DNA of 44,306 nucleotides, filler included, from Sphacelaria rigidula (Eukaryota): NCBI GenBank assembly GCA_964200075.2. It is 2 parts of 2 records of this genome, joined end to end, with 100 filler letters (N's around TTAATTAATTAA, not from the genome) between each part and the next. Parts side by side here need not be neighbours in the genome. Positions count along the whole stretch, not along the records: positions 22,207 to 44,306 come from CAXNAA020000354.1; 1 more part is not named here. The stretch is one strand, 5' to 3'. Positions 12,301-44,306 of the stretch are shown piece by piece (within the stretch, counting starts at the first letter, position 1; the number at the start of each line of letters is the position of its first letter). A program made the position numbers and the translations under genes. The notes below the pieces were generated by a model. The model was not told the origin of the DNA and made no database searches. It worked only from the letters and a program-made list of their open reading frames with translations.

Positions 12301-15300
12301 CTTTTCCTCCTCCTGCGAATGCCGGGAGTCATAAGGGCGGTGCCACAAGATACGGAGGCTGACAAAGCCTGCACAAGTCGGGTGGTGGCTATCGTGCGGT
12401 GTTGGTATAAATACGGCACACAGCGGGGGGGAAAAGGCAAGAAAAGGCATCTGTTGCTTTTCCTACAATGTGCTTCCGCAGCGAAGCCAGTACCTTGTCC
12501 GTGCTATATCTAAGTAATGTTCACCACCCTTGACGATGAAGACCACTTCTCAGAAATTCCTTGCATTCATTATTCCTAGGCTAAAGCTCATGACTGACGA
12601 GACTTTGAGCGCATGGAATAAGTTATCATGCCGATGACCACCCACACTCCTCGTGCCGTCGATTGCCAGCACCCCCCTCCGCCCCGCCCCCGCCCCCGGA
12701 AAAAGCATCCTGAACGCACAGTGTGTGGCACACTTTTAAGAAATAACTGAGAGACACTTCTGCATGCACTACGAGCGAGCTCGCAAATCAAACTGAAGGG
12801 TCACTACGGAACACTCACAAGTAGTTGAGAATGAAGATTGGCGTTGCCTTCGGCGCGAACAACGTCCAGCTTGCCAGCCGTGACCTCATCACGCGCAGCC
12901 GCCAGCTCCTCGTGTATGTCTTCCCGTGCGCGCAGCTTCGCTACTTGGATTTCCAGTTCACTCACGCGTGTACTCCCCTCCATTTTGCTCGTGCGGAGCG
13001 CGTGGTTCAGAGTCACAATCCGCCGCTCAGCGGCAGCCTCTCGCTCTGTTTGCTCCGCCATCTTTTCCCTTGACGCGATCTCCACCTGCAGCATTTTCTG
13101 ACGCAAAGTGACCACTTCCAAACCCTGGTCGCGCAGCAGCTGACGCAATCGCTCGATCGTACATTTTCTCTCCGCACCGGTCGGCTCCAACGCACTCGTG
13201 TAACCCACTGAATCTCGCGTTTCCGGCCGCGCGGCAGATGCGTAGTCATCTCGTTTCTCGGCAGCCACGGCCAGACTCATCCACCACTCCTGAGCGCCGA
13301 GGAATTCTTGCAAACCCTTCGGAGTTGGAGACGGGAGGTGCGACCGCGCTGCGGTTGCCGGCTCGGTGTTGCTGTCCTCCGACACGAGCGGTATGTTGGC
13401 GCTGCCGACCGTTTTGTCAGTACAGGTGGAAGCGTCAACAACACAGCTGCTTCCGCCCGCGCCATCCGCATGGCTTCTACCGCTGTCCGTGTCCTTGTAA
13501 AGCTTGCTATGAGCGCTCAATTTCGCGTTCGCTTGTCGCAGTTGTTCTTCTCTCTCGAGTATGGTGCGGCGAGCCGTCTCCTGCAAGTGCTCGAGGGTAC
13601 GTAATTTCGCCGCCAGTGTTGCCTCACGCTCGCGCGCTTCCCCCTGTTCTCTTTGACGTGCCTTCAGGACTTCGTCCAACGCGGCGCCCTTCTGCGTCAG
13701 GTCGGCAGCTTGGGCGGACAGCGCAAACTGACACACAAGGACGATAGAGGTAGAGGCAAACCGCCAGGAGGAAAAGCAATGCGCACTCGTCATAAATTGA
13801 ATTTTTTTTACGGTATGTTTCCGTACGTATTATATATATATATATATATCTTGCGGAACCGTGCTCGTCCGACAACAAAATCGTTAACTCGACAGACCTA
13901 CTACGGAGGGAAAATATGCCTCGACTTGATCGTGTGCTATTGTGCTCGTTCTGCACTCATGACAGTGGACGTAGCTGACGTGTACATTACGCTGGTGGAT
14001 ACAGTACGCGTTCAGCCCGGCGAATAACGATGGTTCTCTGTCTCACTGCATGTAGTTCGTAAAATGTGTAACCGCTGCAACGCTACGTGTGGCGGTCGCC
14101 TCAAGCAACGCCGATAGCGTATACTTCTCTTTTTCAGGTATTACCTTCAGTTGGGCCACTCGATTTCGAAGCTCCTCAACCGCTTGCCCATTCGTAGTGC
14201 CATCCTCCCACGTGCAGACCGTTCTCCATGCGTCCGGGCAATTCCTCTCCTCATCTGCTTCCTTGAAAGAGCCTGTCGCCTCGCGCACATCCGGAGGTTG
14301 TGCGATAGGGGGTTGGGCTGCCCTCAGCCGTGCGACCTGCAAACAACATCACAAGGTCCTGAGATAAGGGTGTCTTCGTTGCCGGTGCTCTCACGTATGT
14401 CTATCGCTTATGAAGGAGAGTCTGCAAAATGTTGGAGCGTGAGTCTGCTTCGTGCTCGGTGTATATGAAAGTTGATGGTGGTAATGACGTGTGGTGCAAC
14501 GCATTCGATTGTCATCCTTCCGACATGGGATATTGTATTTTCGTTTCACCCAACACCATCAGGTTACAGAGCTACGGTCAGCATTTGCGCTATTACAAAT
14601 CAGCAGGATGTTCCACAGTCCCAACGCAAATTTAGTAGCCTACCCATTACTTCATCCTATATCTCCACACTGACTCATTTGTTGGTCTAGGGATACATAT
14701 ATTCCGTTGGCTTTGTGTAGCTGAACCTTTCATCAATTATATTTCCCGGCTGAACCGCGTCGCTCTTTGTCTTCTGCTCATTTTCGGGGCAGAGTGTCAA
14801 CCGCTCGATTCCTCCTGCGGTCCCTGTTCCCAGATTTTGTCGCCCGCTGACAGCCCCGCGTGCTCTTGGAGGTCGCTTTGGTGGGCGTGATTAGACGCAA
14901 AATGGACATGGGGTGCTTGACAGGAGTGCTTCAAGAGGACAGAGTTCTAGCTAATAGGCGTGTGGCAGCCTTTCGCGATGGTTGAGGGAGGAAGGTGCAC
15001 GTGTTCTGTGTGTGAACGCACGTCGGACGGATCAGATCGTGACAGATCCGGGTCGGCTCATTTGGGTTATAGACCGTGATCTGTCTGAGGTGTGCTGTCA
15101 CCTTTGCAAATTTGTCCGATGGGGATCTGTAAGGATCGCTTGGTCCATACATGTTTGCCGAGTGACAAGCTGTATGACCCGATCCACACACACACTCTCA
15201 TGCAGAAATGATTTGCAAAGATCTGTCATCTGTACAACATCACATAGTTATAATCTAAATAACTTTGGTTCATTCAAACGCAGCAGCTTCTCGTCGGCCC

Positions 15301-22106: not shown

Positions 22107-22206
22107 NNNNNNNNNNNNNNNNNNNNNNNNNNNNNNNNNNNNNNNNNNNNTTAATTAATTAANNNNNNNNNNNNNNNNNNNNNNNNNNNNNNNNNNNNNN
22201 NNNNNN
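22107..22206. other. Assembly gap with artificial six-frame-stop linker
   Basis: N44-TTAATTAATTAA-N44, exactly 100 bp. Further 10-N gaps lie at 33055-33064 and 42283-42292. Confidence 0.95.
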
Positions 22207-22209
22207 ACG

Positions 22210-22517
22210 GCCCAAGTCGACGAGTCTTGAGCTGAAATTTCAGAAAGACCTTCTGCACCCAAGGAACTGATACTTCACAAGTCCAGCTGCAAATTCTCCT
22301 TTTTTTCCTGGACTTGTGGCATCATCTAGTTTTTTTTTTCTGAAATTTCGAATCTCCATAACTTTTTGATTTTTTATTTTTTCATTTGCTGCTCACGTGA
22401 TCTTCTGCATTTCGATCATGAAAAATTGCTGTCAAAATTTCGGCGTCCAACTCCTAATATCTCGCTATGCGTCGCCTGAGTGAGGTTCGCGCCTAATCTT
22501 GGCTGGCCCAGCTCGTA
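22210..22517. repeat. Dispersed ~300-bp repeat (MITE-like), copy 1
   Basis: Reverse-complement homolog of 35037-35333; shared blocks include GCTGAAATTTCA, TTCTGCACCCAAGG, GCGTCCAACTCCTAATATC and TTGGCTGGCCCA.CTCGTA. Confidence 0.75.
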
Positions 22518-25800: not shown

Positions 25801-28800
25801 CTGCAGAAGAGGACGAGCCGGAGGCCGTAGGCCACAAGTCCGGCCACGTGCAAGGCCGAGAGCGTGTGCAGCCCGTCCCTAAACAGCCACGCTGCGGCTG
25901 CTGCCTGCAAAAAATCATTAATATTGCCCACGGCAAAGGGTGCCGAACCCTTCAGTTCTTGCACCACACTCCGGAGGCCTCGAAACTGAAGCTAAGCAAT
26001 GACACGAGTGGCTAATCCTGAGCTTGGATCATGATGTATGTTTGGGATGTTAGCAACATTTGACTGCGAGTCCAAACAATTTCACAGATGCAACCACTAG
26101 CAGGAAACTAGAGTTAGCACCACGTTGTGCAGGTGCGTGGAGCCAATACATCCATAGAAAGGAGGTAAGACAAGATCTGGGCACCCAACGAGCGTTTGTG
26201 TGCTTCGGGCCACCGGCGTACCGGCTATGGCTGTCTGCAGAATGCTTTGAAGATTGTATACTAGAAGAGTGTGTAAATGTATATATATACAGGCTGGTTC
26301 ACGGAAAAAAATCGACTTTCTGTCATCAGCAAATGCCTCCTGCAGTACGCACCCAATAGTCGCATACATGGTATCATACTGACCGCAATGAACAGACGAA
26401 GAGGGTGACATAGCCGGATTTTTGTTTAAGGCTATAGCGGTGGCGCTATGGACAAAAAATGTGTCTCGACCAATCAGCGCCTTTCAAACTGTTCCGAAAT
26501 CGAGAATACGAATTCCAAGCACAATTTCCACCGAATCTCCACATGCTTCAAATCGTAGTGACCGTCATCACCTCAAGAATCTAACGGGAGAATAGGTTTT
26601 GAAAACGATTCCAACGGGGTCGAATTATACCCGAAACCGTTATGTTTCGGTGATGTGGAGTTTCGCGTCGTCTAATTTCCACTCATGATACGCGGGAAAG
26701 ACCGAGGGAGCCTCGTGACGATTTCCCTTATACATGTTGTAGAAAAGCTCCGATCATCCTCAAACTTGGCAATTCCGTAGGTATTGATGCTTCAAATGGA
26801 AAATTGTGATATTGGCAAGGGTTCAGAGTTTCTCCGTCCTCTACCACCTTCCGGGGATCCCGGTACAAAAACCCCTGAAAGGCGGTACAGAATGACTCAA
26901 AAGAAAAAATAATAACATGATGCGTCCCGGGATGGTCCAAGGAACACATGTACAATTTTTGGTGGAGAAACTCGAAAATCTCATTCAATTTTTCCTGCCT
27001 TGACGTAAAATTCACCCTAAAAGATATTTTCATACTCAAACCAAGTAGTTCGGAGTTTGCATGTTTTAAGCTCACATCCTCGCACAAACGCGCAAATCTT
27101 CACGCATTAATTAGAAGTTAGACCCTGAAACTTTGCACAAATGTGCTATGAATGATTACACAAGTTTCGATCAACGAGGTTTTTCTAATTCTTGATTATT
27201 TTACCGTTTTCCGGGGGTCTGACGGGATCCAAGTCGTTTTTTCGAACTCATCCATTCTGAGACCCCGGAAAACCGGCACTAGAGTCTTTTTTCACTTTTT
27301 TCGCGAGCGCTCTGCCGCCGCAAAACCCAAGGAAGAACCCCACAAAGGTTCGTGGCCAAACTCGATTAAGTGGTGCTTGAATTTTCATGGCAAGGTTCAT
27401 CGCACAAACGCGAAAAACTTCACGCCATTTTAATGGGTTAGACCCTGAAATGTTGCACAGGTGTGCTACGGGTCATTACACAACTTTGTATCGATGATTT
27501 TTTTTTCTCTATTTTTTACCGTTTCACGGGGGCCAGACTGGATCGAATTTCTTCCCGGAAAAAGTGGGACCCCAGAAAAACGGTGAAAAATTTAAAAAGA
27601 AAAAATCGTCCATACAAAGTTGCGTAATGATCCATAGAACACCTGTGCAAAATTTCAGGGTCTAACTCCTTAAAACGGCGTGAAGTTTTGCCGATGAGTG
27701 TTTGGTTTTTTTTTCCCGTGAACCAGCCTGTATATTACAAAAGAACGCGCGGAGTAGGGAGGATTATCAAATCAAACCAGAGGCTACGGATAACAAGTCG
27801 ACGCTTGCACAAGTAGAACCTTGCACCTGGACTGGTACCTTTGCCGCTCCCCGTAATACCTAACAGCGGAGAAGTCCCATTATACCCCCAGCGTGAACTC
27901 TGAGGATAGTCAATCGACCGTCATATTTAGTCACTAACCCTTTAGACACTCGCGCGTCAGGCCGCGTGTCATTCCGTTTTTGCATGTCTTTTCGATGGAG
28001 AAACAACACCGAAAAAGAAACGCCGTTGGCACACACAAGCAGCGCGCCTGAGACATTTGTGCATGAGCCGCGGCCTGCCGTTGATATTTGCGAAGGGAAG
28101 ACGACCTCCGCAGGCTTTTGCGCTCTTAACGTGCAGGCCAGAAAATGCCTCACAGAACCGTCCACTCAGCCATTTATCAAGCTAAAAACCGCGAGCAACT
28201 CCTTCGAGCGCCCAAGCAACTTACAAGTGGCCACCTACGCTCATATTTTTGACAAATCTCCGTAAAACTTCCGAGACTATTCAAGACAGGATTTTCGGGC
28301 CAGCAGGCGGTGGGTATAAAAAGGGTTAAAAAAATATACCTGGAAAGCCACCGAAAAGCCGTACCCGTAGCTGACGAAGTGTTCCCTCACACGGAAGCCA
28401 TCAGCGGACAAAAGCAGAGACACTGCCACACCCTGCAGAAAAATGCGCAGAGGGAACGGAATGGCGCAGCAAAAAACGTTGCTTCGTGGGGGGACAAGTT
28501 GTGTATATCTTCTTCGACGTGCGAGATCGTGTCAAACTCGCACGTTCGAAAACTTTGGTGAAAGGGACCAGCCGCACGCTGAGTTCGGCTGCCCCGCGAC
28601 CACCCTATTCGAATGATTTTTTATCTTCCGTGGATATCGTGGAGACATATCAAACAAAAGAAAGCATCATTCCTCCATACCATGAAGTGAATGACGGTGC
28701 CAATCCCCCAAGTATCGCATGGGCGTCTCCACGTTACTGCAATACTTGCCTGTGCAAAAAGAGCTGGACCGGAGAGGGGGACGTGCGCAGTGGTTGAACG

Positions 28801-29884: not shown

Positions 29885-32800
29885 ATGCTTGTTGCAGGTC
29901 GTGGTTACGGTTGGGCCAGGTCTGCGCTAGCGACCTCGCGCCCAACTCGAGTTTCGCAACATGTCACTGGCAGCAGAATCGTGGCCTTGGCAAACCCTAC
30001 TGTTGTAGTCAGACGAAACCACTCGGCTTGGCAGCAAGGCGCTTCCGCAGGCGGCGTACGCGACACAGGCGCTCGTCGGCGAAACAAGAGTACGTTGGTG
30101 GAAAATAAATCTGGAGAGCAAGTCGGCGTGTTCAATGGGGGCAATAAGGCAAGGATGACGCCGCATAAGGCGGACGATGTTGCTGCTGAAGGCGCTCGCC
30201 ATAGAGTCAGCGCAATAGGTGGTCAAGAGCGGGGCGAGTCGACGATGGCCGCGGCGAACGGAGCACGCTCAACTACGGCGGTCACGGACGTGGGGAGCAA
30301 GCAAAAGTGGATGGACTATCAGATGAAGCTGCAAGCTAGAGTAGGTCTCTTGCAAGAATCCCAGGCGGTGGAGAGCGAAGTAGTACAGCAATGCACAGTG
30401 GCTGATTCCGCGGTTGTCGACCTAACCAGGAAGGGCACAGGTGATTATGGCAGTAGCAGTGATCGCAGTAGCGGCAGTAGGAAGAAGACGTCGGAGACGC
30501 ACGCCGCGGGAGAGGAAGTCGAGACATGTCAACAACCCGAGGCGATTGTCCCGAGGAAGAAAACAGCGTCTAGGGGCAGCCGAAAGGAGGTCCCAGCGGC
30601 ACAAATGGGGAGTTTGGACGCGACCGACAACGCGCAGAGTGCTTCGCCCCCAAGGACAAACGGACACGCCAATGCTAGCAGCGGCACGAGTAGTAGTGTA
30701 GAAGGGGCTATAGCAGAGATTGCTGGGGCACGCCGCATCCTCGCCGTCAACCCCAACACTGCTGCGGCAGCGTCAATAAACGGACACGCATACAGCAGAC
30801 TGGGCATGAGCGGCGACGCGACATTCGACGAATACACATCGGCTGTGATGGAAAGAGAGAACTTCACGGGACTAGGGTCAGTGGCAGCAGCAACAATCGA
30901 AACACCAAGGAGAGATCCACAAGGACTTTATTCGATCGGCAACAATGGAGCCGAGAGGACGAGTTCCGCGACTATTTGCCTCGGCAGCACTAACAGCAGC
31001 AGCACCAGCAGCACTGCTACTTCACAATTCGAGAGGAACCTCTCGTCGGGGGTGGAAGCGGGTGTGCTGGAAGGGAGAGTTACCAGCACGGTTGGTAGGC
31101 GAGCTTGGTGTAATGGGGAAGAGTACGATGCGATTACGGACAAGTCAATGGTGTCGCCATCCCATGCTGGTCACAGTGGAACTGAAACGGGCGCTACAAT
31201 ATCTGTGGAGAGCGTTGAGTCCGGTCATGAGCCGAAAGACGAAGGCTCGGCAATAGTAGCAACAACATTAGAGGCGGTGGAAACTACGATAGGCGACGGC
31301 GATGGTATTGCCCACAATTCGGTCAAGGGCGCTCTTTTGCAACGCCAACAAACCAGAGCACAAGTGGAAAACCTGGCGGATATATACGGGAAGGGGGTTG
31401 CCGCGGCGGCCGCAGCCGTTGCCGACGGTGCTGCTGACGATTACAATAATGTATTGAATTTCCTCACGGACTCGAAGTCGTCATCCTCATTGCCATCAGT
31501 GTCTTCAAGAGAGAAGCAGGCTAAAACAGGCTCGACGCCGCCCGCGTCTTCCTCGGATACAAGAGAAAGGGCTGCGCAGGGAACGCATCAGGCTTCGGGT
31601 GCGAGTATGCAGACACCTGAGAATCCATCGCCGGCGTCTACTACTGGCACGAGTGGTGACACGGGCAGGGCTACCGCTTGGTCGAACGTCCACGCAAGGA
31701 GAAACCTTCAGATTTTGCTGGAAGGGCTTGAGAACGACTATGGAGTGGCGGCGGGAACTAAGCAGAACTGTGTTCCCAAGGTGTGTGACGTGTGGGGATG
31801 TTCGCGGGATCATTTTTGTTTGCTCGTTTCGTTTTTTCATCAATCGCACCACCACACCTTATACTACATGTAGGGGAAGGCATTTGGACGTTTATAATGG
31901 GAGCGTCTGCCCGTTTTTTTCTGTTTGATGAAGCAGTCGGATTTCATAGTCATGAACCGGTGAGATTTGGGTCTCACGCTTACTATTGGGCGTATGTAAA
32001 ACGAATAATCGCGCGTTGCAGGGCAATATAGGATATCGAGTATCTTTACCTGTTAATTTCAGTATAGTCCAAGCCCCATACAACATTGGTTGACATATAT
32101 CCGTGACTTGGTAAAAGATTAGTGAACTTGTAGAAGCTGGTCAAAAATTAATTTATCACAGCATCGACCCGGTATGTCTCCGCGGTATAACGTGGGCGAG
32201 ATTGGCGCATACATTGAGTGGGTGCCGTTAGGGGCATACCTGATATAAGATTCGGAGATACGTTCGCAATATGAGGGGGAAACAGAGAGTATGACTTCAT
32301 GCGCCGAATAAATATTCCTTAATTTAATAACCCTCCAATGGGGTTAGGCGTCGGTTGGCGATGATGCCATGAAACACGCCTCTCACTGAGTAAGGTAGGC
32401 TACCAGGTTACCGATTTTTTTGCGCGCTTGCGTTTTATTTCGCGGTGACCACGATGGTGGTCGAGCTAGATCATGCTGTGCGGGGTGGGAGAACCTCAAC
32501 TCCGCGTAAAGGGGATGATCGTACTACGTGGTGTTTACACGGTGAGAGACCCATGAAGTAGTGTATAAGCCGTGGCTGTCTCTGAAAGTGGCGGTACCAG
32601 AAAATGAAGCAACTCATTGTAGGCTGTCATCCAAGTGCAAGATAATCAGTAGGCCTCGGGCCGAACAATCGTAGCAAGATGCAGCTCACCCTTTATGCCA
32701 CTCGCCGAGCACACCACGGCGCTTCGTGCTTGGCGATTGATTGCGAGCCTGGTCCGGCGAAAACCGGCATGCTCCGTCCCGGCTTGTAGGGATGCAACGG

Positions 32801-35800
32801 TCATATGACTATGGCATGCATGATCATGAGCACACCCACCTCGGACCCTTTTCCTTTGGCCGTCAAGGAGCCACCACTGGGGGGAAAAGACGAGCTGCTA
32901 ATGTACTGTCTATTAGCAAAACGTTTGCCGTCATCATCCTTGCATGAACAACTTAATCTCTGGTCACCTTACGCTTCAAGCAATATTTCACGGTTAGGAC
33001 GAATCATCACGACTAAGAATCACCAAATTCACGATTTCTTCGGCCTGATTGCCCNNNNNNNNNNCGCTGGTCCAAGGGGTATCCACGCAACTTTTGCGCC
33101 ATTTCATGTGTCTAGGCTGCGTGTACCTGGGTTGCAATGATGAAATAAAGCCTAAGAATTGACTCGTTCGAGTCGAATCAGTTATACTAAAACCAGGTAA
33201 TTTCCAGACGAATCATTATTGTCCGACTCTTGAATAGTTTCATCTCGCGATATCACGATGGCACGCAAGCGACCAAGGGGTATCGGCAGCCAAGGCATGA
33301 AGGTACCTTCAGAGTGCTGGCATTGTGATTAAAAAGTAAGGTGCCCCAATTTTGCGGTTGCGACCTGTTCAAAATCTCCATCCAATCGGACCATTAATAT
33401 AACGCACACGCCTCGATACTTCGGATATCAAACGTGTCTTGAATTTATGACTAGAACGACACAAGCCCGACTGACTCCCTGTCAGCACGGTACTGCATGA
33501 ACAATACTGGACCGACTGCACTGCAGCCTGTTGTGCTGACTGCAGGGGATCCATACTCGTGTCGTTCAGTGCACTGTACGCGAACACTTCGAATGTCCCC
33601 CTGGAGTGCCGTGTTATTACATCTCGAGTTATTTTCCAGGCGAACGATTGTAAGACTGGCTGCACGCGTGTAAGCATACCCCGTCCCCGCCTTCTTACTC
33701 CTGCTTTTTTGTTTCTCAATCTCCAACACAGCGCACGCTGGCGAAAGTAATGCCTGTTTTCCGAAAGCAGGTGTTGACCGAGCCTGAGATCGCTTTCCCG
33801 GGTGAGAATGACCAACTTGTATACGTTCATTACACTTGTCCCAGTTTTAGACCAAGATAATACAAAGTCTAGCTATGTCATATTCCGTAGTAGTCTGTAG
33901 CGTGTAGTCGAAGGCAAGATGGGGACAGATGACCTAAGCTGCAGGTGCACAGTGTCCGCTTGTACAGGGTTGTATGTTGGGCTTGCCGTGTTTGACTCGC
34001 CTAAATAAAATGCGGTTAGGGTTTAACTACGTCGGCGTATTGGTCTGCAGATGGTAAGCAGGTGTACTTTCTGCTCAGTACACTGCATGTGCATACGTTC
34101 CAAAATTGCATAGCAAACGTTACCGTGTGGGAGAGATTGAACATAACAGATACCTATCAACTCGGGTATAGCATCCCTCCTCCGATACATTGGGGCCTGA
34201 CGCGAGCGTCTTTCACCTTGACCGAAATTGACTGAAACGCAGCCTTGAATCGGGTACTGGACGGCTGCTGCGGGTGTGACCTAGCACACATGGATACTCG
34301 TTAGGTGACTTGAGCTTTTATGTGGGATTGTGAGGTGGTGTCCAAACAGGTTCGTTTGGTTTCCCATTTTTGCGTTTGCTCCCATCACTTCAGTTTCTCT
34401 GACTCGTCATCAACGAGTGCCAAATTATCAAACAGTCCGCGTTCCGACGTTGAGCCCCGTGGCCGACTTCAATGCTAACTTCCTTACAGAAGCCTGATTG
34501 CATCTAGCAGCTCAGCTACTTGGAGATGGAATCCCCCCCACCCTCTCACCACACGTCCTTCGAGACTAAGATCAAAGTTGAGGATGCGAAGCCATCTTTG
34601 AAACGTGTCACCGCTTGCTGTGTTTGTATACGACAACTTGGTCATATCAACTTGTTCAACATTGTACATTCATCTAATATATACTATCCGGGTTACTTTC
34701 CAGGAGAGGACGGAGAGCGCATAAGGGCGGAAATTTCGAGACTCTGTTTCGATCCCAAGTTCAGGGGCGATGCCGTGACACGAAAAAAGCCGCAAAGGGT
34801 CGCGCAGCGTCACGGGAGGACGTTCAATTTCCAGAGCAAAGCGAACCATCCCTCTGGGTTTACTGCCGCACGGGCGCGGATAGTCGAAGAGGTCTTTATT
34901 CCGCGGTAGGTGTGGAAAGTGTGGAGGTGTGTGGAGAGGATGGATTGAGGAAGGGGGGAGATTCGCGTCACAGTGCGGTGCTTCTCTTTGTCTACGTTTG
35001 ACTTTTACCTTGAACTCATGTGGTCCTGGAGTAGGTACGAGTTGGGCCAGCCAACAGTGGGGGGTTTTCTCGCTCAGACGACGCTCGGCGCGATATTAGG
35101 AGTTGGACGCTGAAATTTCGACAGCAGATTTTTATGATCGACATGAGAAACATCCCGTAAGCAGCAAAGAAAAAAAAGAAGGAAGTTACGGGGGTTGAAA
35201 TTTCAGCAAAAACAAGATGATGTCATAATTTCACGAAAAAAATGAGAATCTGAAGATGCTCACGGGATGTATCATTCCCTTGGGTGCAGAAGTTCTTCGT
35301 GAAATTTCAGCCCAAGAGTCCTCGAATTGGGCCACGCGTGGTTAAGGTCATATATGATGCAGTCCATTTGTTTTTCATTTTTCTTCTTCATTCAGCGGCG
35401 GTGCCGTGTCTTACCAGGTTGGTCTGCACTTCACAGTGGTATGCTTACATCGGGTTCACTCGGGAAAGTGGGAAAGCTGCGGTGTGAGCAACTTTTAGCC
35501 GCTTTTAAGCTGGCCCAGTTCGTACAGGATATGCTTTGACTATTTGTTGTTGTTGTTGGTGGTGGTGGTGGTGCGGCGTCGAGGTCTCGGTACGGTATAG
35601 GCTTTTGTTTTTTTATGCTTTTTTTCCCCAAAAAACTTATGCGTCTCGTTCAAAAGGGGTCATTTTGAAGCGGAAATCCCACCGAGGCGTTACAATTACT
35701 TTATTTTAGTGTGGAATACCTAAAATCAAAATCCATCATATATGCGAATTATATGCGCGCATCAAAAACAAAAGCCTAGTAAGGTACACTGTCTTGGATA

Positions 35801-38800
35801 TGTGTCAAAAGTCGTCACTATGTATCTTCTTGTTGGATTACGATTGTGGAGTATGACGTCCTGTGTTGCCACGGCTGCATATTGAGAAAGCATCTCCATT
35901 GAGAGTTTTGGGTTATCGTAGGAATCACCATTTCATTTGAGAAACGATGACGCTAAACACCATCACCAGAATAGTGATGATGATGATGCTATTAATAATG
36001 ATGCTCATGATGCTGATGCTAATTCTGTTGTTTTGTTACTGTGGGTCCAGGTTAGTATCGCTCGCGAAGGAACTATTCCCCGAGGAGGTGGAGAACGCTC
36101 GAATTCTGCTGAGGGCCGTGGATTTGTCAGATCCGCACGAATGGTTTCCGCTGGCGAGGTTACGCAAAAGGAAGATCATCTATCACGGGGGTAAAACCTA
36201 CTTGATATTTACCGTGTTCATTTTTATCGATGATCAAAGTTTCCATGTCTTCGTAACAGCCTTGAGCATGACGATGCATGCGAGTACATACTTGTACGTG
36301 TTGCGGTGTTGAAAAGGAGATCGGAGGATTTTTTGTCGTTGCCTTTTGTTTTCATGATGTCCATTCAGCTCACGTCTACTGCTGGAAACGTCAAAGAGAA
36401 AGTCGAACTGTACTTTGCAAGTGCAGGTGCAAGTACAAGTGCACCAGCAAGGTCCGTTTTTCAGCTATTGGCGCTTAATTATAATCGAGTGGGTTGCATG
36501 ATACGGTACGGCGGCAGGTCCCACGAACTCGGGGAAGACGTACAACGCGATCAACAGGCTAAAGCAGGCGGGAGCTAATAGGAAAGAGGGCGATCCGCCC
36601 GCCGGGCTGTTCTGCGGACCGCTGCGGCTGCTGGCGCTGGAGGTGTACGAGCAGGCGAGAGATCTTTAAGAAATGGAAAATGACATGATTCAGTCAACGT
36701 CTGATTATAATAATGATGATGACAGTAGGGCATGACTCGGCGCTGGTGGTGTACGAGCAGGCAAGAAACCTTCGAGAAGTGGAGAATGGCACGATTCAGT
36801 CAACGTATAATTATGATAACGATGATGGTACTACTGTAGAGTAAAACTTGCCGGCTTATCTACAAACATTGTGGATCACGGTAGGATCAACTGTTTTCCG
36901 TAAATTCAGAAAGTTTCTGTGCGTGGTGTTAGTTCATAGCGGCTGTTCTTTTCATGGTTTCAGACGCCGTTTTCAAGATATTTCAGCTCAAAGTGTCAGC
37001 TATACACTACACCTTGCAGCAGCTACCGCTCCATGTCAATTATAATTGTCGCCATCATGGGCGGGCGTAGTGTTGATTAGCGGCGAAGATGCTTTCGGTA
37101 TCAGCACTCGCGGGACAAAACCACGGTAAGCAATATTTTTCAAATTGCTCCATTCATAAATGTAGTGAGAAGAGACGGCACTCGAGAAGTACGCCACGAT
37201 CATCAAACGGGGATACTTCAGAAAGGTACGGACGGCATGACGGGGGAACAGATAAATCGAGCCCGAGACGGATATGGCGGGGAATGAAGCAATAGCACGC
37301 CTCCGAGGAGGACTCGTCCGCTAATTGCGCACGATAACAGTCGCAAGAGTGCAGCGTCGTCGCCGAACAGAACACAGGGAAACGTCAAGAGCTCACATGG
37401 CCGCCTCGTGCCGGAGACGAGAGAAATGGGAAAATGCGCTGAAAACGTGCACATGTTGCTGACGCGGTGTGTGACGTCGGGATTTAAAATCCCTGCGTTG
37501 ATGGAGTGGATGTAACCGCAAGAGCCCACGAGAAGCCTTCCCGCGGCGCAGCGCGAAGAATAGTATGGTGTCGAAAACGCTAATGCGTTATCTTGCTGTC
37601 TTCCCCTCCGTCGCCGTGAGGCCCGTCAAAGTTTAGATACAGATATTTTTGTTATAGCTGGGAGAAGGGGAGGGAGGGGGGCGAGAAAATGCTCTCTAGT
37701 TTGCCTTCGTGGTGTACTGGAGATTTTGAAGATCAGGTCCTCAGATGTACGTGCATCGGCGAGAACAAGGCGCGCAAGCCTTGCCCTTGGAGAATCAAGC
37801 ATCGAGACATGGGCTCTTTCTGGAGTGGCGCAAGTCAGCTAAAACTACCACCTGTGACATCGCAAGCAAGCGTATGGTCGAACACAGGGCACAGAACGTT
37901 TTACGTGAGCAAGAACTACAACCAGAGCGACTCGGCGAGCGTCTACGCGGTCGGCGGAATGGTCGTTCTTGAAACGTGTCGTATGCACGTGCTCCTGGGT
38001 GATGTCGTGGCTGGAGGCGTTCTGCTCTGCGCGTGCCATGCATGACTGCAAACTACTCGCGACACAGACCAGGGTTGAATGTGACCAGTTTTCGTACATG
38101 TCTTGGTACAGAAGCGAAAACTGGGTTGCATGTTCACTCTCTGGACGTCCGTACCCCTGGCAAACATGTTCAGCTAGATGGAGACATTGAGTAGACGAGG
38201 TCGTTTTTGCATGACCGCGACCCACTCTGGTTGAGTGCATGGGGTCTCACAAACGGGGCATTTTTTTCATATTGTCTCTTATTCTTCACTTTCTTCCTCT
38301 TTTTTCCCGACTTCTCCGAAAAAAAATGACGAAAAAAGATCCGACGCTAGATTTTCGGATAAATCTGTTTTTAGTCTCAAATCGATCGAATGTCTGTACC
38401 TGGATGTGGAATCTCCCCTCACATTTCTCGCAGGGATACCCCCCCCTCCCGAAAAATTGAGAACATTCGAGGAAAAAACCAAACTCGTTAATAAGACCCC
38501 TAAGTGATGCCATACTATTGAACGATGTGAGTGCCGTAAGTGCTACCCCATTACTCACGTAGACAATTGAAATATGTCTCGCAATTTATGCCTCCAAGGA
38601 TGTGATGCTGTCGCTCAACTCCCCCTTCCTCTTTTCATGCTGGACCCCCCACACGGCGTTGTATTCGACCGCGCAGCTGAACAGCCAGGGTGTGTACTGC
38701 AGCCTGTACACGGGGCAAGAGAAACGTAGTGTTCCGTTCGCGACGCATGTGTCATGCACCATCGAGATGGCTTCCTTGACCCAGCCCTTCGAGGTGGCGG

Positions 38801-41800
38801 TGATCGACGAGATACAGATGGTTGATGACAGTCAGAGGGGGCAGCACTGGACCAATGTGAGCGTGTTTCCGTTCGTCTGTTGATCCCTCCGTCTGCTTGT
38901 CTCTTTATATGTCAGTCACGTCGATCTGTCTCCGTCGTGCATTGAACATCTGAGGCGTTCCTCTTCGCCGGACACCTGTAGACGAGAGGAGACGCTGTAA
39001 GCGGCGACCGATATAGTAGGTGGTGGTGGCGGCGTCCTAGTAGGTGTCAAGGGGGTGGTATTCCGCGTGTCTTCATTGTCAACTGATTTGTCTATGTGAT
39101 TGATTTGATCTATTGGCGATCGCACATCAACTGAGAGGGTGAGGAATCCGGCCATGGTACAAGATGGACATGATCAAGGTGGACAAATCGGAAATACTCC
39201 CCATATACAGGAAACTCGAGAAATGATAGTGATCATTTACTGTGTATGTACTATGTACTGTATGAAACGAAAACGGGCCATTGTGTGCAGATTTTTCCTG
39301 CTTATTTCGTCACACTTCTATCCTCTCCCCTTCCTCGAGGCGAGTCGGTGTGGCCTCGAGAGATCTATCTATCCCTCCACCGGTACATGCCTTGCATTTC
39401 TGGTGTCGCGGATTGGATCATAACCAACACTTCCGCACCGCGTCCACTCTCGTCAAACAAGCTGAATCAAGTGTCTTTGGTAAAATAAAACAACTCCGCA
39501 TCGTTAAACGCGTTTGATGCGGAAGAACAACACGCCACGGATTGAGAAGACGACACGACACGACGGGATATGACATGAACGGTACACTCGAGATTTCGGA
39601 GACTTGAACAATAATCGACCAAAACCAGTGACAGTAGTCTGAATTCAGCCGTTATTGTTATTTTCGTATATATGACGTGTGCTTCTTTTTCCGTTTTTGC
39701 ATCTGCTGCAGTACTGCAGACTGTATATAGCCAGCAAGAGTCAACACATGGTGCACGCGGGCATGAAGCCGCCTACTTTGATTTGCACACAGGACGGGCA
39801 TTTACTGTACATCAAATAGACGCGATACAAGCAACGGCCAACCGTTCCCCACTCATTGGTTCAGGTTGCTACATGCAGCTTGCTTTGGAGTTGCTGCTTG
39901 CTGTGCTGCAGCTCCGCCAGAATCATGCGGCATCGTGAATGCGCGTGTTGTAAATCCTTGAGCGTGATGCCGACGACATGAGAACGAAGGACCACGGGAG
40001 CACAAGCCAAATGGCCGGTGCTTTACCGGACTTTTGTGTTGCTTGTCCGTTTTTCTATTTCGATATATTGTTTTTCCCTTGTTCGAAAAACAATAATCCA
40101 AACCCCAACTCCAACCCCAACCCTATTATATTTTGTTATATTTATGTCATATTTATTATATGTAATTTTATACTTTTATTTTACACATGTACGTTATTTT
40201 GAAAAACACGTCCACCAGACCCTACCATTACGACAAATATTTATCAGCGCCCCATCGTCTCGAAAACATTATTGGAGTTCCCAAAGGGGCGTGATTGATA
40301 CGTACGTACGTAAGCGGTACAGCGTCCACTCTGACGGAGTGCACACTACATTTATCCTGTACCGTTGTAAGATTACCCTAATACTGTGAATATACATACA
40401 TACTACGACGGTACCGTTGTAAGGTTAAAATAGGAATTATGATACATCTGAACCAGGTACAATAGTATAAAGGTTGCTGTATTCTATTTTATTTTTTCTC
40501 ACACCCTAGAGGAAGACAATAGATGACGTTGTCAAGATATGTGTTCCGCGTGCAACATGGAATCGATTGCCTATTGCAATAGACTTAAATAGTCAATACT
40601 GTACGCAGTACACTTTTTGACAATGCGTTCTGTTGTCCAGCGGGGTGTACTCATGATCATGCATGCCACAGTCATAAGACCGTTGACCTCGCATCCCTTC
40701 AAAGCCGGGACGGAGCACGCCGGGTTTTCGCCGGACCAGGCTCGCACTCAATCACCAAGCGCGTTGTCCAGGGAGGGATTCTACCGGAGGGGTGAACTTT
40801 TTTAGTCCAGAAGCTTTCTGAGGCTGCACACCAAGTCGCAGATATTTGTCATCCAGAGGCTCCGATAGTGCAGAGCCTCGGGAAAAGATGGTGCACCCCT
40901 CCCGTAGAATCACAGGGTGTAATTTTTCCGTGTTTTGAGCGACAATGGTTCCCATACCAATCGCTCGTTATAAAAAACTCCCTTCATAACACCAATTGAA
41001 CAAGTTGTTTTACTTTCTTTTCGTTTATCTCAGGCACTGTTGGGGCTCAATTGCCCCGAGATACACGTGTGCGGCGGGCTGGAGGCGGCTGACCTCGTCC
41101 AATCCCTCTGCGAGAAGGTCAGTGGGGGCAGAGTGTCATTCCCCGTTAGAGTGTATGTTTGTGTAGGGCTGTTGCCCAGTACAAGGAGGTTCGTGAGGTG
41201 AGATGTAGTACGGTATACTATATTCCTTCAGTCGCATGTTGGTAGGGTAAAGCGTCGTCGAACTGCCGACATATTTATGAGTACTGAATAAATACGGACG
41301 CAACGAAGGAAATCCTGGGGATCTTTACACCGTATTGTCTCAAGCAACATGTCAACATTGCCATCTTCGGGCGACGATTTGGTTTGAAACCCCCGCCCTC
41401 CCCCCCCCGACGCGCGCGGTTATCCAAATGAAAGATAAGCAGTACGCTTCGGGTCGAACAGTCTCAGAAGCATGCAGCTCACCCTTCATGCGACTCGCCG
41501 AACACATCACGGCGCTTCGCTCTTGGTGATTGATTGCGAGCCTGGTCCGCGAAAACCCGGCGTGCTCCGTCCCGGCCTTGTAGAGATGCGAGGTCAATGG
41601 TCATATGAGTATGGCATACAAGATCATGAGTACACCCCCCTCTCGCGTGCGCACTACCGGGGGATGGCCCCAGATAGAAATCATACTCAAGGGGATAGCA
41701 TGATGGTTCCCGTTTTCTTTTATTGTGTCTTTGATACCCCCTTCTTCCTCAGGACGAGCCTGTAGTCTCAAGGAATGAGCCCATCTCTCCCCCGAGGTGT

Positions 41801-42696
41801 ACCTGACATGTTCGTCTGTATCGCGGGTTGGATCAGCACTCCCGCACCGCGTGCATCGACTCTTCATGTCTTTTTTTCTTCTTGGCAACTCACGTACGCC
41901 CTCCCGTTTTGAACTAGGGAAAGCAGATTCCGCTGAGGACGACCGCACTTATCTGTTAGAAGTCGAATCCGCAACCTTCCGACTCACGTGGCTTGTGTTG
42001 TACCAGTTAGATCAGCATTGATATATACGGAGTATATCTATATCCAGATATGAGAAACTGGAACATGACCCATTCTCATTTTGTTGCCAAGGCTAGTATC
42101 GGAAGGGCTACACAGGCATCACAGGCGTCAGAATTGTCCCGGCTCACTGCATACGCTGCAACATTGAACACAGACCCTTCCCCTTTCCTCGTGTTGTGAT
42201 TTGGGGGGGGGGGGGGGGGCGCGGGCTGCACCAAGAAGCACGCAGTCACGCTGGGGGGGCGCGGGAAGGGTGTGTTGAGACGNNNNNNNNNNCTCGAGCG
42301 CTAGGCGTTTGTCTGTGGGGGTGGGGGGGGGGGGGAGGGGGGGGCGGGGCGTGGTTCCAGTACTGAAATATACATGGCCTCTCTTGTGCTGCAGGTACTT
42401 TTTCGGTGCAAGGACATCGTCCGAGCTGTGGCAAAAAGGAAAAATATTGTTTTTTCGACCCTGTGTGTGTGAATAGTAGTAAGAGTAATGGTGTTTGATG
42501 GTTTGTGGGCTAATTTCATGATGACTGTTTAACAAAAATTGACCGTAAATGACGAATGGCCGTGTGCATATATGTACTGTATGTATGTACGCGGTACAGA
42601 TGGGCGATGATTTCGAGCTTCATGAGTACGCTCGCAAGACGCCGCTGGTGGCGGCCGAGGAGAGCTTGAAGGGGTCCTACGCCAAGGTCCAGCCAG
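29885..42696 (+). CDS. SUV3: Mitochondrial ATP-dependent RNA helicase SUV3 (3'-partial; continues beyond the window)
   Basis: Exons 29885-31780 (R/S/A-rich presequence-like start, then a long low-complexity region), [unresolved phase-shifting exon], 34704-34905, 36051-36190 ([23 protein letters not shown]), 36518-36654 (GPTNSGKT Walker [17 protein letters not shown] donor), 38677-38856 ([28 protein letters not shown]), 41034-41117 ([14 protein letters not shown]), 42600-42696 (YARKTPL...KVQPG; GC donor). These are canonical SUV3 motifs in order. Exon 1 ends in phase 0 and exon 34704 starts in phase 1, so the link needs an exon I could not place. Confidence 0.9.
32386..32834 (+). mobile_element. 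C-run-targeting non-autonomous retroposon, copy A (~449 bp, apparently full length)
   Basis: Colinear by eye with the reverse complement of 43376-44181 once the MITE there is removed. Ends ...GATCATGAGCACA followed by CCCACC. The TSD is weak (CACGCCTCTCA / CCCACCTCGGA, 7/11). Confidence 0.8.
35037..35333. repeat. Dispersed ~300-bp repeat (MITE-like), copy 2, opposite orientation
   Basis: Matches 22210-22517 in reverse complement. Confidence 0.75.
36634..36830 (+). repeat. Tandem duplication (106-bp period) spanning a SUV3 exon/intron junction
   Basis: GGCGCTGGAGGTGTACGAGCAGGCGAGA...GATTCAGTCAACGT at 36633 recurs as GGCGCTGGTGGTGTACGAGCAGGCAAGA...GATTCAGTCAACGT at 36739. Confidence 0.85.
38241..38500. 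mobile_element. Degenerate MITE (260 bp)
   Basis: Imperfect TIRs: GGGGTCTCACAAACGGG versus reverse complement of the right end GGGGTCTTATTAACGAG. The interior is AT-rich and the TSD is unclear. Confidence 0.5.
39301..39450 (-). mobile_element. SINE-like fragment (core plus 3' domain)
   Basis: The minus strand has ACGCGGTGCGGAAGTGTTGGTTATGATCCAATCCGCGACAC (39443-39403) followed by GACTCGCCTCGAGGAAGGGGAG, similar to the two other SINE-like copies. Confidence 0.5.
40646..40762 (-). mobile_element. C-run-targeting retroposon, copy B (5'-truncated, 117 bp)
   Basis: Matches the terminal 117 bp of copy A in reverse orientation. Flanked by GTTGTCCAGCGGGG (40632-40645) and GTTGTCCAGGGAGG (40763-40776). 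Confidence 0.85.
40777..40911. repeat. 135-bp foldback with 21-bp inverted arms (MITE-like)
   Basis: GATTCTACCGGAGGGGTGAAC (40777-40797) and GTGCACCCCTCCCGTAGAATC (40891-40911) are 19/21 complementary. Confidence 0.7.
41419..41634 (+). mobile_element. C-run-targeting retroposon, copy C (5'-truncated, 216 bp)
   Basis: Matches the 3' half of copy A and ends GATCATGAGTACA. Degenerate TSD CCCCCCCGACGCGCGCG (41402-41418) / CCCCCCTCTCGCGTGCG (41635-41651), 13/17. Confidence 0.85.
41715..42017 (-). mobile_element. tRNA-derived SINE-like element (same core and 3' domain as 43121-44258)
   Basis: The minus strand reads GCTGATCTAACTGGTAC...GGAAGGTTGCGGATTCGACTTC (A/B-box-like), then core ACGCGGTGCGGGAGTGCTGATCCAACCCGCGATAC (41852-41818), then GGGGGAGAGATGGGCTCATTCCTTGAGACTAC. 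Ends are approximate. Confidence 0.55.
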
Positions 42697-43697
42697 GCGA
42701 GTTCCGATGGATATATATCCCCGTTATTGGCGTAGAATGGTTGCTGTCGGCCACCCCAGAGGTCCGAAAACGGTTGATATCTGAGCATATACTACAGTGA
42801 TGCTTGTAGATTATTCATGCCGTTGTGGCTGCTGTACTTGTTTGCAGCTATTTCCTGTACTCTACTAAGCAACGTCAAAGGTGCACTCCCTGCTGTGTTG
42901 AAGGTACATAGTTCCCGTGGTACGCATGTCTACGTCGATCTATCACACAAGCCACGAACACATGTACTATCCATACATACACCATTATATATATATATAT
43001 ATGTATCTCTCCGCTAATCACTTTATTGTGGGCTACGAAGCTCGTTGTCCTCTCTATACGGACCCGGCCCGCTATCGAGGGACGTGCAGATGAAAACGTA
43101 GAGCTTGGTTCAAACTGCATGCCCCCCGGTGATACAGATTGAGATGGGTCGTCTTAAAACCGGTTCGCGCGACAGGGGGTTCGAAATCCCAGCATAAATA
43201 TTTATGTTTTATACGTTGTGCTTTTTAGCAGTGTGTGATATCCATCTTTGATTGACAACGTGAGCACGTGAGTCGCAAAGACAGTTTTTCTGAAGAAGGT
43301 CGACGTGACGCGGGAGTGGAGTGCTGATCCAAATCGCGATACTGTTTACCGAAATGACGGGCAAGCAACGGGGGGTGTACTCGTGATCTTGCATGCCATA
43401 GTCATAAGACCGATGAATTCGCATCCCTACAGAGTCGGGACGGACCAGGCCGGGTTTTCGTCGGACGAGGCTCGCAATCACCAAGCGCGAAGCGCCGTGA
43501 TGTGTTCGCCGAGTCGTATGAATGGTGAGCTGCATCCTGCTAAGATTGTTCGGCCCGAAGCGTTCCAAGTATCTTGCACGTGGATGACAGCCTCGAACGC
43601 GTTACTTCATTTTATGGTATCGCCACTGCCAGAGACAGCCATGGGTTACACTGCCTCATGGGTGTCTCACCATTCTAACACTACGTATTACGGTCGA

Positions 43698-44052
43698 GAC
43701 TTTTTACGATAGCCCCCCTCCCCCCCCCCAAACCAGCGGTGCTCCGTCTCGAAAGGGATGCGTGGTCAATGGTCACAGGACTAAGGCAAGCAACGAATTA
43801 TTACGCACCCCCTCCCCCCCCCAAAAAAAAACAGCCCAAAAGTGTCACGAAGAACATGGTCATACAGCGCCTGTTGTTCAGTTTCAGGCTGCATAAAGCA
43901 CCTCATATGGGCGACTTTGGCGAAAACGAACCCGATCCAAGCGTTCGAATGTCCAGCTGCTCGTTTTGTCCGACATTTTTCAGTTCGATTCACGTGTAGA
44001 TTTTGCCTCTCCAAACCAGCCACGTTTTGTGGAGAGGCTATGGTAAGAAGTG
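43698..44052. mobile_element. MITE (355 bp including nested copy E) with a 4-bp TCGA target duplication
   Basis: Left TIR GACTTTTTACGATAGCCCCCC versus the reverse complement of the right end, CACTTCTTACCATAGCCTCTCC. TCGA occurs at 43694-43697 and 44053-44056. The segment is absent from homologous copy A. Confidence 0.75.
43733..43807 (+). mobile_element. C-run-targeting retroposon, copy E (diverged subfamily, 5'-truncated, 75 bp)
   Basis: GTGCTCCGTCTCG..AGGGATGCGTGGTCAATGGTCAC resembles the family 3' end (GTGCTCCGTCCCG..GAGATGCGAGGTCAATGGTCAT). It ends TTACGCA. TSD CCCCCTCCCCCCCCC(C)AAA at 43714-43732 and 43808-43825. Confidence 0.65.
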
Positions 44053-44306
44053 TCGATCATCCCCTTCGCGCGGAGTTGAGGTTCTCGATCCCGCACAAGA
44101 TGATCTAACTCGACATCATCATAGTGACCGCAAAAAACACAAGTGAGAAAAAAACGGTAACCTGGTTGCCGAGCTTACGCAGCAAGTAACGGGGAAGAGA
44201 CGGCTTGATTCCCTGAGACTACGGAGCCGAAAGTGCGACAATATATATATATATATATACAAAGTTCCCCTCCGGGAGGCTGGTACGGGCCTCCCGGGGG
44301 TGCCGC

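Follow-up and report, generated by a model that had tools for sequence, protein, structure and literature searches.

Ancient copies of a highly abundant short retroposon inserting at C-runs, in DNA from a brown alga or one of its close relatives

The window, that is, the whole 44,306-nucleotide stretch of Sphacelaria rigidula DNA that was analysed (filler included), carries exons of the SUV3 helicase gene, whose best named relatives are those of brown algae (73-79% identity), and five copies of a repeat, A to E. The copies had been picked out in an original prediction made from the sequence by eye, and repeat search, MAFFT and BLASTN recovered all of them at or near where it had placed them. 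All five were thought to lie inside SUV3 introns; this is shown for B and C only, which lie between Pfam-supported SUV3 exons. The features, with target duplications (TSDs) given in the orientation of the element, are as follows.

32339..32834, plus strand: copy A, ~496 bp, complete or almost complete; start uncertain by ~8 bp (BLASTN, MAFFT, contig depth)
32835..32840, plus strand: CCCACC following A; possible short partner CCCTCC at 32331-32336 (5/6, P=0.067, not significant)
35941-36312: weak SUV3 exon ORF (E=0.0049)
38563..38883, plus strand: SUV3 helicase exon ORF (PF22527, E=3.8e-22), context for B and C
40633..40645, minus strand: 3'-side TSD copy of B, CCCCGCTGGACAA; partner 40764-40776 (11/13, P=0.0008)
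40646..40763, minus strand: copy B, 118 bp, 5'-truncated (repeat search, MAFFT, BLASTN)
40974-41201: further SUV3 exon ORF (E=5.6e-6)
41416..41634, plus strand: copy C, ~216-219 bp, 5'-truncated, starting between 41416 and 41420 (repeat search, MAFFT, BLASTN)
41635..41651, plus strand: 3'-side TSD copy of C, opening CCCCCC; partner 41402-41418 (13/17, P=0.014)
43362..43375, minus strand: 3'-side TSD copy of D, CCCCCCGTTGCTTG; partner 44183-44194 (11/12, P=0.0002)
43376..44182, minus strand: copy D, ~46 nt missing at the 5' end, split by a later insert (MAFFT, BLASTN)
43694..44056, no strand assigned: MITE-like insert F within D, ~363 bp, terminal inverted repeats 16/19
43713..43732, plus strand: 5'-side TSD copy of E, C6 T C10 AAA; partner 43808-43826 (18/19)
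43733..43807, plus strand: copy E, 75 bp, divergent 3' end ...TTACGCA (family D6, MAFFT)

As predicted, the copies have one end in common, reading ...GAGTACA or ...GAGCACA, with ...TTACGCA in the case of E, and none of the five bears a poly(A) or microsatellite tail. The other end varies, the five copies having five different 5' ends and five different lengths. A fixed 3' end, variable 5' truncation and TSDs of variable length are features of LINE-type target-primed reverse transcription (TPRT). The copies are 10-20% diverged from one another, with pairwise identities of 80-90% among A to D. Copy E gave no BLASTN match at E<=1 with A as query, and was detected solely through repeat family D6 (80% to C) and the MAFFT alignment. 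The 806 bp spanned by D include the ~363-bp insert F, which is MITE-like and lies outside the retroposon family; a MITE or DNA transposon identity for the retroposon itself was rejected, as it has no terminal inverted repeats among the inverted repeats of the window, whereas insert F does.

Contigs of public runs were aligned to the window at a likeness of at least 80%; the run sets examined consist of contigs, none of them on record as RNA (X6 is only guessed to be RNA). Three DNA runs yielded 56,814, 42,895 and 46,220 aligned contigs. In the X1 run, unique flank has a summed depth of 69.5. Within the element the value is only 0.41 million at the 5' head (32389-32417), rises to 12.6 million over 32621-32649 and is 5.2 million over 32795-32823, coverage thus climbing from the 5' head to the body of the element. 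This gradient is confounded by a sister family that has the same core and 5' head and a different 3' region. Summed contig depth, which is not a copy number, suggests a family size of roughly 1e5 copy-equivalents.

The same contigs correct one point of the original prediction, namely that A and D share a start at 32386. Contigs from other copies in the genome run without a gap from 32347 across this position (records 25-27), and contigs span 32347-32600; bins 32331-32388 already show a high summed depth, the rise being in place from bin 32331-32359. Copy A therefore begins further left, ~46 bp from 32386 at about 32339-32347, and is ~496 bp long, and because of this shift D is 5'-truncated by ~46 nt. 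Two other copies start at the 5' point of A after a C-run (joints 32837->32372 and 32837->32347). The element is thus a short non-coding unit of ~496 bp with a defined 5' head and no Pfam domain. Were the ~500-bp unit instead a mere 3' end of a long autonomous LINE, every copy would be a 5'-truncated LINE and there would be no dedicated short element, as the strong 5' truncation and the failure to find a Pol III head might lead one to expect. This is unlikely, however, as the depth of 69.5 to the left of ~32331 in A marks that sequence as single-copy, at least two other copies start at the same point directly after a C-run, antisense ORFs in public contigs stop at one and the same 5'-head peptide (P0033, P0091, P0169 and P0189), and Ectocarpus has comparable short units in its repeat library (PMC12477816).

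For the TSDs, each flank pair was compared with 5000 random flank pairs drawn from the window. The prediction that the truncated copies carry TSDs stands for B, D and E, where the duplications (12-19 bp) are clearly non-random, none of the 5000 random pairs being as good as the 18/19 of E. The duplication of C is marginal and of low complexity (13/17, P=0.014), and that of A, which had also been put forward, is not significant (P=0.067) under either candidate start. It is confirmed that a C-run opens each duplication right behind the fixed end, the letters at this point being CCC, CCCC, CCCCCC, CCCCCC or CCCCC across the five copies; a C-run at the 3' terminus with a C-rich TSD is found in 5/5, and the first C of the run is exactly where the duplications of B, D and E begin. 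A solo LTR was rejected as an identity for the repeats, since the TSDs are 12-19 bp rather than a fixed 4-6 bp and the five copies have five lengths.

Copy E is nested in insert F, where it struck a C-run followed by an A-run. This target run is older than E, lies within an unrelated insert, and was duplicated in full, including its T interruption; thus, the C-run is target sequence, and not only tail. Long C/G runs are common in the window, with 10 runs of at least 8 against ~1.3 expected from base composition, which would suit an endonuclease-independent insertion at breaks in G4- or i-motif-forming C/G tracts by any available reverse transcriptase. L1 insertions made without endonuclease usually lack TSDs, however, and the regular 12-19-bp duplications from the exact edge of the run point to two staggered nicks, making an endonuclease-independent origin very unlikely.

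Outside the window, contigs with loose ends behind 32837 numbered 441, 440, 402 and 53, their consensus opening with 14-19 Cs, and those with loose ends before 32541 numbered 209, 213 and 185, the sequence there being a C-run. At joints that go back from 32837 to inner positions, the intervening letters start with Cs in 6/6 of those listed. Truncated copies are thus arranged head to tail with C-runs in between in the genome-wide contigs. Independent public contigs, read at the protein level as antisense ORFs of the family, show the same arrangement. The searches returned 6, 365 and 678 matches, and 230 distinct public proteins are antisense read-throughs of the family and its sister family. 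In this reading a run of Gly corresponds to a G/C-run in the DNA. At least two consecutive Gly stand just before the element end in 88 of 113 junction windows, which come from 107 of the 230 proteins, as compared with 186 of 2368 control windows (8%; Fisher P=4e-67 against the junctions). P0146 and P0150 each hold 2-3 truncated copies with Gly runs between them, and P0033 also holds several copies of the element; tandem occurrence of the family is therefore seen both in contig joints and in multi-copy public ORFs.

The window, the genome-wide contigs and the public contigs at the protein level all back the prediction of a TPRT-type family that is 5'-truncating, free of poly(A) and inserted at C-runs. 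The five window repeats are genuine and old, and belong to a very abundant short retroposon with this insertion preference, itself one member of a very abundant superfamily of a brown alga or close relative. Taken as a whole, they are probably best explained as an old, ~500-bp, non-coding and non-autonomous non-LTR retroposon that was copied by TPRT and driven by RTE-X elements.

Classical SINEs are likewise short, non-coding, LINE-dependent and present in high copy number. The element differs in having no tRNA, 7SL or 5S Pol III head (Rfam, ARAGORN), and a classical SINE was rejected on this ground; a T7 run inside the element (32414-32420) would stop Pol III. Rfam gave 0 matches over the window at gathering score, and only weak snoRNA-like chance matches at E<=10 over 32250-33050, while ARAGORN found 0 tRNAs in the window. 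An RT/EN Pfam domain was found in none of 128 window ORFs (53+75) and in none of 150 related public ORFs. Metagenome contigs held 0 loci each for the 3'-end motif and the core motif, and viral contigs 0 loci for element copies. A dinoflagellate spliced-leader motif matched at 3 places, each time with 3 mismatches, which does not exceed chance, and a dinoflagellate origin was dropped. The consensus fold of the last ~115 nt, drawn from only 4 copies, contains 1 compensatory pair among 31, and the whole of copy A folds at z=-1.55; these folds give no support for a conserved 3' structure, for which four sequences are too few.

Penelope-like elements (PLEs) likewise yield 5' truncation, variable TSDs and partial tandems, and a PLE had been named in the original prediction as a possible partner. 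Such elements are present in Ectocarpus as Chlamys PLEs (PMC12477816). In the case of the window family, however, Rfam yielded neither a hammerhead ribozyme, whether at gathering score or at E<=10, nor any other family; C-runs, not pLTR-like joins, lie between tandem copies; and among the Ectocarpus library entries a 3' end of (A)n is noted for Chlamys-1_Ec32, (C)n being noted for RTE-X (PMC12477816). A short element dependent on PLEs is accordingly very unlikely, the least probable of the readings considered here.

Nor need the partner go without a name, as the original prediction had it, for the Ectocarpus library has autonomous (C)n RTE-X LINEs and ~600-bp derivatives of them (PMC12477816, Genome Biol 2025 supplement). 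The entry for RTEX-1_Ec32, an autonomous LINE/RTE-X, reads '(C)n 3'' with a 'C-rich' TSD, and that for RTEX-2_Ec32, of the same class, '(C)n termini/TSD'. RTEX-N1_Ec32 is 607 bp long, with '5' head unknown' and the remark 'can be present in tandem'; its 3'-most 60 bp are 83% like RTEX-1/2, and it is the most abundant family. In the available parts of the main text, the C-run target and mechanism are not discussed, and 'C-rich' occurs 0 times (PMC12477816). Compared by description, RTEX-N1_Ec32 and RTEX-N2_Ec32 resemble the window family in their host group, the brown algae, in being short and non-coding (607 bp there and ~500 bp here) with a 5' head of obscure origin, in ending in (C)n on the 3' side and having C-rich TSDs, and in being often 5'-truncated, arranged in tandem, first in copy number and common in introns; they differ in abundance, with ~6000 copies in Ectocarpus against the order of 1e5 by summed depth here. 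Because the library lists both (C)n RTE-X LINEs and short non-autonomous RTEX-N elements, the window family is most likely a further example of the RTEX-N kind, likened to it by features and host group. The family was not recognised in the original prediction; its kind is already catalogued in Ectocarpus (PMC12477816). Literature searches, which did not extend to Repbase or Dfam, gave no account of a poly(C)-tailed or C-run-targeting SINE or LINE beyond these entries, and the available parts of the Phaeoexplorer and E. subulatus preprints name generic TE classes only. As a catalogue item the family is ordinary, because for RTE-X and its derivatives the Ectocarpus curators had already recorded C-rich TSDs and ends in (C)n.

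Where the nick falls, that the partner is an RTE-X element, and whether a G-run primer pairs with Cs at the 3' end of the RNA are matters of inference. The element would enter the genome by TPRT. The bottom strand would be nicked first, where a G-run ends on its 3' side (5'-GGGG/N), and a second nick would fall 12-20 nt downstream; cutting at the first of these sites would create a duplication that, in element orientation, opens with a C-run directly after ...GAGTACA. Early stops of reverse transcription, if common, would leave 5'-truncated copies, and C-runs beside older copies could be struck again, building head-to-tail arrays. The enzymes would most likely come from RTE-X-clade LINEs, with a single EN-RT ORF and an APE-type endonuclease, as catalogued in Ectocarpus, an assignment that rests on matching features and host group.

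The data fit G-run priming on an oligo(C) RNA, and fit equally an endonuclease that prefers the edge of a G-run. The former would be a strict G/C mirror of L1, in which an oligo(C)-ended RNA must pair with the exposed G-run and the C-run is both tail and target, the oligo(C) being transcribed from the C-run of a master copy or added by RT slippage. Several observations are suggestive of such a mirror: the consensus of the 3' loose ends shows a long run of Cs, with an agreement of 0.43-0.48 over 14-19 positions, Gly runs of at least 4 occur at 27/113 junctions, the curators annotate autonomous elements as '(C)n 3'' (PMC12477816), and the TSD copies of B, D and E differ by 1-2 Cs, as slippage would give. 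However, endonuclease preference alone gives the same pattern, and the C-runs at the 3' junctions of the window copies are not consistently longer than those of the 5' TSD copies (6 versus 4 in D, 5+9 versus 6+10 in E, and 6 versus 9 in C); thus, nothing in these old copies points directly to a C tail carried by the RNA. A strict mirror is therefore a tentative reading, somewhat more apt to fail than to hold.

In TPRT of the L1/Alu type, a homopolymer likewise sits at the boundary between the 3' end of the element and its TSD; the duplications are of variable length, truncation affects the 5' end, and later insertions go into the tails of earlier ones. The window family differs in that its homopolymer consists of C, with G on the primer strand, rather than A/T, in having no polyadenylation signal, and in its likely partner, which would be of the RTE-X clade and not L1. 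Waldo, Mino, Kibi and Dong are simple-repeat-specific LINEs of the R1 clade with di- to tetranucleotide repeats as targets; these too are TPRT elements whose endonuclease chooses a low-complexity target, whereas the target here is the edge of a C/G homopolymer, the remainder of the TSD being unique sequence.

If true, G/C-guided insertion would be a second natural example of homopolymer-guided TPRT, with the opposite base pair, and could help to separate endonuclease specificity from primer-template pairing in LINE targeting. It may also explain the richness in long C/G runs of this brown-algal genome, and the growth of its introns. It is conceivable, if rather doubtful, that brown-algal RTE-X LINEs and the short elements depending on them go through an L1/Alu cycle in true G/C-homopolymer form, in which a G-run is nicked, an unpolyadenylated oligo(C) RNA is copied, and C-runs are left or lengthened that attract the next insertions, up to ~1e5 copies. 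The family would then both seed and feed on the unusual excess of long C/G tracts in the genome. The poly-C tracts that lizard and frog L1 elements are reported to carry within their 3' UTRs (PMC5381506, in the parts available) are a different matter.

Five related repeats, copies A-E, lie between 32.3 and 44.2 kb of the eukaryotic window; they are genuine, and chance falls far short of accounting for them. As originally predicted, the copies have one end in common and differ at the other, which was borne out by a repeat search, a five-way alignment and BLASTN.

Copies of the family and their target site duplications (TSDs), each scored against 5000 random 24-mer pairs from the window
~32339-32347 to 32834, + strand: copy A, ~496 bp; repeat search, five-way alignment and BLASTN, start from public contigs; TSD 5/6 (P=0.067, not significant)
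40646-40763, − strand: copy B; repeat search, five-way alignment and BLASTN; TSD 11/13 (P=0.0008)
41416-41634, + strand: copy C; repeat search, five-way alignment and BLASTN; TSD 13/17 (P=0.014; low complexity, marginal)
43376-44182, − strand: copy D; repeat search, five-way alignment and BLASTN; TSD 11/12 (P=0.0002)
43733-43807, + strand: copy E; repeat family D6 and five-way alignment only; TSD 18/19 (none of 5000 random pairs as good)

Copies A-D are 80-90% alike. Copy E is shorter and more diverged, and was missed by BLASTN with copy A as the query, a search that returned no additional copy elsewhere in the 44-kb window. The window copies are old. In the alignment, the 3' ends of all five are in register at ...GAGTACA (GAGCACA in A, TTACGCA in E) and are directly followed by 3-6 Cs, and the 5' ends differ in all five. 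As had been claimed, none of the five carries an A-tail or a microsatellite tail. Target duplications had been assigned to every copy, an assignment that is significant for B, D and E, marginal for C, and not significant for A. In B, D and E, the duplications open exactly at the first C of the run, right after the fixed end as predicted, and extend into unique sequence (…TGGACAA, …GTTACTTG, …AAA). In the case of copy E, the entire interrupted C-run is found on both sides, and thus the C-run belongs to the target and is not merely a tail.

The fixed 3' end, the variable 5' truncation and the C-run-initiated TSDs uphold the reading of a poly(A)-less retroposon that inserts at C-runs through target-primed reverse transcription (TPRT). 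Both a solo LTR and a MITE are ruled out for this element, since its copies are truncated on one side only and their TSDs vary from 12 to 19 bp. In TPRT terms, the bottom strand would be nicked first, at the point where a G-run ends on its 3' side, and the second nick would come 12-20 nt downstream. Priming may depend on base pairing between the G-run and the oligo(C) end of an RNA, or G-run edges may just be the sites that the endonuclease favours; in the window copies, the two C-runs are unequal by no more than 1-2 bases, sometimes one way and sometimes the other, which fits both.

Contigs of public sequencing runs, aligned on 32186-33034 at a likeness of at least 80%, revise the 5' boundary of copy A, previously placed at 32386. 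Summed depth of the repeat is already high in the bins 32331-32359 and 32360-32388, single contigs of other genomic copies cross 32386 unbroken (32347-32600, 32372-32670 and 32382-32608), and two head-to-tail joints (32837->32372 and 32837->32347) have other copies starting in the same place, right after a C-run. Copy A therefore starts at ~32339-32347. Nor do A and D share a start, as had been proposed: copy D begins at the equivalent of 32386 with a clean TSD, and is thus itself truncated, lacking ~46 nt at the 5' end. The extra length of D is an insert at 43694-44056 (~270 bp without E), which is MITE-like in having terminal inverted repeats with a 16/19 match. An internal C6TC10 plus A-run of this insert was the target of copy E.

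The number of contigs aligned to the A region was 56,814, 42,895 and 46,220 for three DNA runs, and 2,838 for a further run (X6) that is only guessed to be RNA. Runs X1 and X2 represent one sample, and X3 is labelled an algae metagenome.

Summed word depth in run X1
Unique left flank: 69.5
32389-32417: 0.41 million
32447-32504: 2.9-3.8 million
32621-32649: 12.6 million
32795-32823: 5.2 million

The profile has the same shape in X2 and X3. In order of magnitude, units that include the 5' head number several thousand and those that include the body about 1e5, bearing in mind that summed depth is not copy number. Of the loose ends, those with the strongest support lie behind 32837, in 441/440/402/53 contigs, with a consensus that opens with 19/14/18/19 Cs (agreement 0.43-0.48), and before 32541, in 209/213/185 contigs, with a C-run. 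Joints leading from 32837 back to inner positions represent truncated copies arranged head to tail. For all six listed joints leaving 32837, the intervening letters start with Cs; when 32835-32837 are counted, ...ACA is followed by 4-8 Cs. A second very high-copy repeat, to which BLASTN did not align the retroposon, starts at ~32985-32989, within the stretch 32969-33034 that precedes the N-gap at 33055, with an X1 summed depth of 0.2-0.85 million and 150 contigs with loose ends before 32989.

The antisense frame of copy D is open, and was used as a protein query, retrieving six predicted 'proteins', then 365 cluster representatives with a profile and 678 with a wider profile; all listed antisense-profile matches are ENA or Logan ORFs. 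The matches belong to two families, that of the window and a sister to it, which have a conserved core and 5' head in common and differ in their 3' regions. Thus, the core peak in depth stems partly from the sister family, and not from 5' truncation alone. Among 150 scanned related ORFs, one (P0159) had a Pfam domain above the curated cut-off, a host TIP49 (TIP49/RuvB-like) exon (E=5.6e-14) in one ORF with the end, read in antisense, of a copy of the sister family, which places that copy directly beside an exon at another locus. P0173 also matches some Pfam families, but is a look-alike made of tandem repeats that probably falls outside the family.

Read in antisense, a C-run becomes a glycine run. 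Junction windows open to this reading numbered 113, in 107 proteins among 230 distinct sequences. At least two consecutive glycines occur in 88 of them (78%), against 7.9% of 2368 windows taken as controls within those proteins (Fisher P=4e-67); for at least three, the figures are 53 (47%) and 3.2%. P0146 and P0150 each contain two or three truncated copies with glycine runs between them, and P0189 is a read-through of a complete ~500-bp unit. A third, unrelated repeat end in public contigs (P0079, P0160 and P0176) likewise has Gly/Trp runs ahead of it when read in antisense, a sequence pattern suggesting that the C-run junction may be common to several families.

The element has no match to tRNA, 5S, 7SL, snRNA or hammerhead sequences, and a T7 run at 32414-32420 in copy A makes it less likely that Pol III transcribes the unit in full. 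A consensus fold from as few as four sequences did not reveal a conserved 3' stem, and no reverse transcriptase or endonuclease domain was found among 128 window ORFs. The original prediction invoked an unidentified LINE or Penelope-like partner, a description superseded by the RTE-X LINEs of Ectocarpus as the likely driver. The best named relatives of one SUV3 exon (Pfam E=3.8e-22) are from the brown algae Hapterophycus, Ectocarpus, Undaria and Scytosiphon (73-79% identity), which makes the host a brown alga or something closely related. Within the portions of the literature available, a search found nothing on C-tailed retroposons save the Ectocarpus TE landscape (Genome Biol 2025, PMC12477816). 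There, LINEs are often 5'-truncated and common in introns. The curators' table describes RTEX-1_Ec32 as 'single EN-RT ORF; (C)n 3'' with a 'C-rich' TSD, RTEX-2_Ec32 as '(C)n termini/TSD', and the non-autonomous RTEX-N1_Ec32 (607 bp; '5' head unknown… can be present in tandem') and RTEX-N2_Ec32 (188 bp) as having 'C-rich' TSDs. The contrasting entries are (CAA)n for RTE, (CA)n for CRE and (A)n for Chlamys PLE. The main text, as far as available, does not discuss the C-run, and 'C-rich' occurs in it 0 times. Every testable feature of the window family fits the description of the catalogued RTE-X dependants, and the family is thus most likely a further case of this kind, whose likely driver, by analogy, is the RTE-X LINEs that end in (C)n and have C-rich TSDs. 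The window family is far more abundant than the catalogued elements, its figure being from summed depth and not copy number.

Other repeats are present in the window. C/G homopolymers of at least 8 (1-71, 42203-42344 and others) number 10, against ~1.3 expected from base composition; three are TSD copies belonging to C and E. A pair of short − strand pieces at 42203-42282, each ending ...CCCGCG before a C-run, may be remnants of a different C-tailed family. A ~310-bp repeat with GGCCCAA-type ends, present as an inverted pair (22209-22517 and 35036-35333, 77% alike), probably represents a MITE family, and its first copy adjoins an assembly gap containing a TTAATTAATTAA linker (22107-22206). At 27077-27691 lies a cluster of a ~130-280-bp repeat, with copies in both direct and inverted orientation, including a 276-bp palindromic arrangement (27414-27689, 79% self-complementary). 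A tandem duplication at 36633-36827 (units of 89 bp with a period of 106 bp, 84% alike) follows shortly after the first weak SUV3-like exon. Lastly, the − strand of 321-13829 carries a series of long open frames (the longest 605 aa; coiled-coil-like, Ala/Glu/Arg-rich) that is probably one very large gene, with a poly-Gln stretch near 4950-4996 encoded by CAG/CTG repeats.
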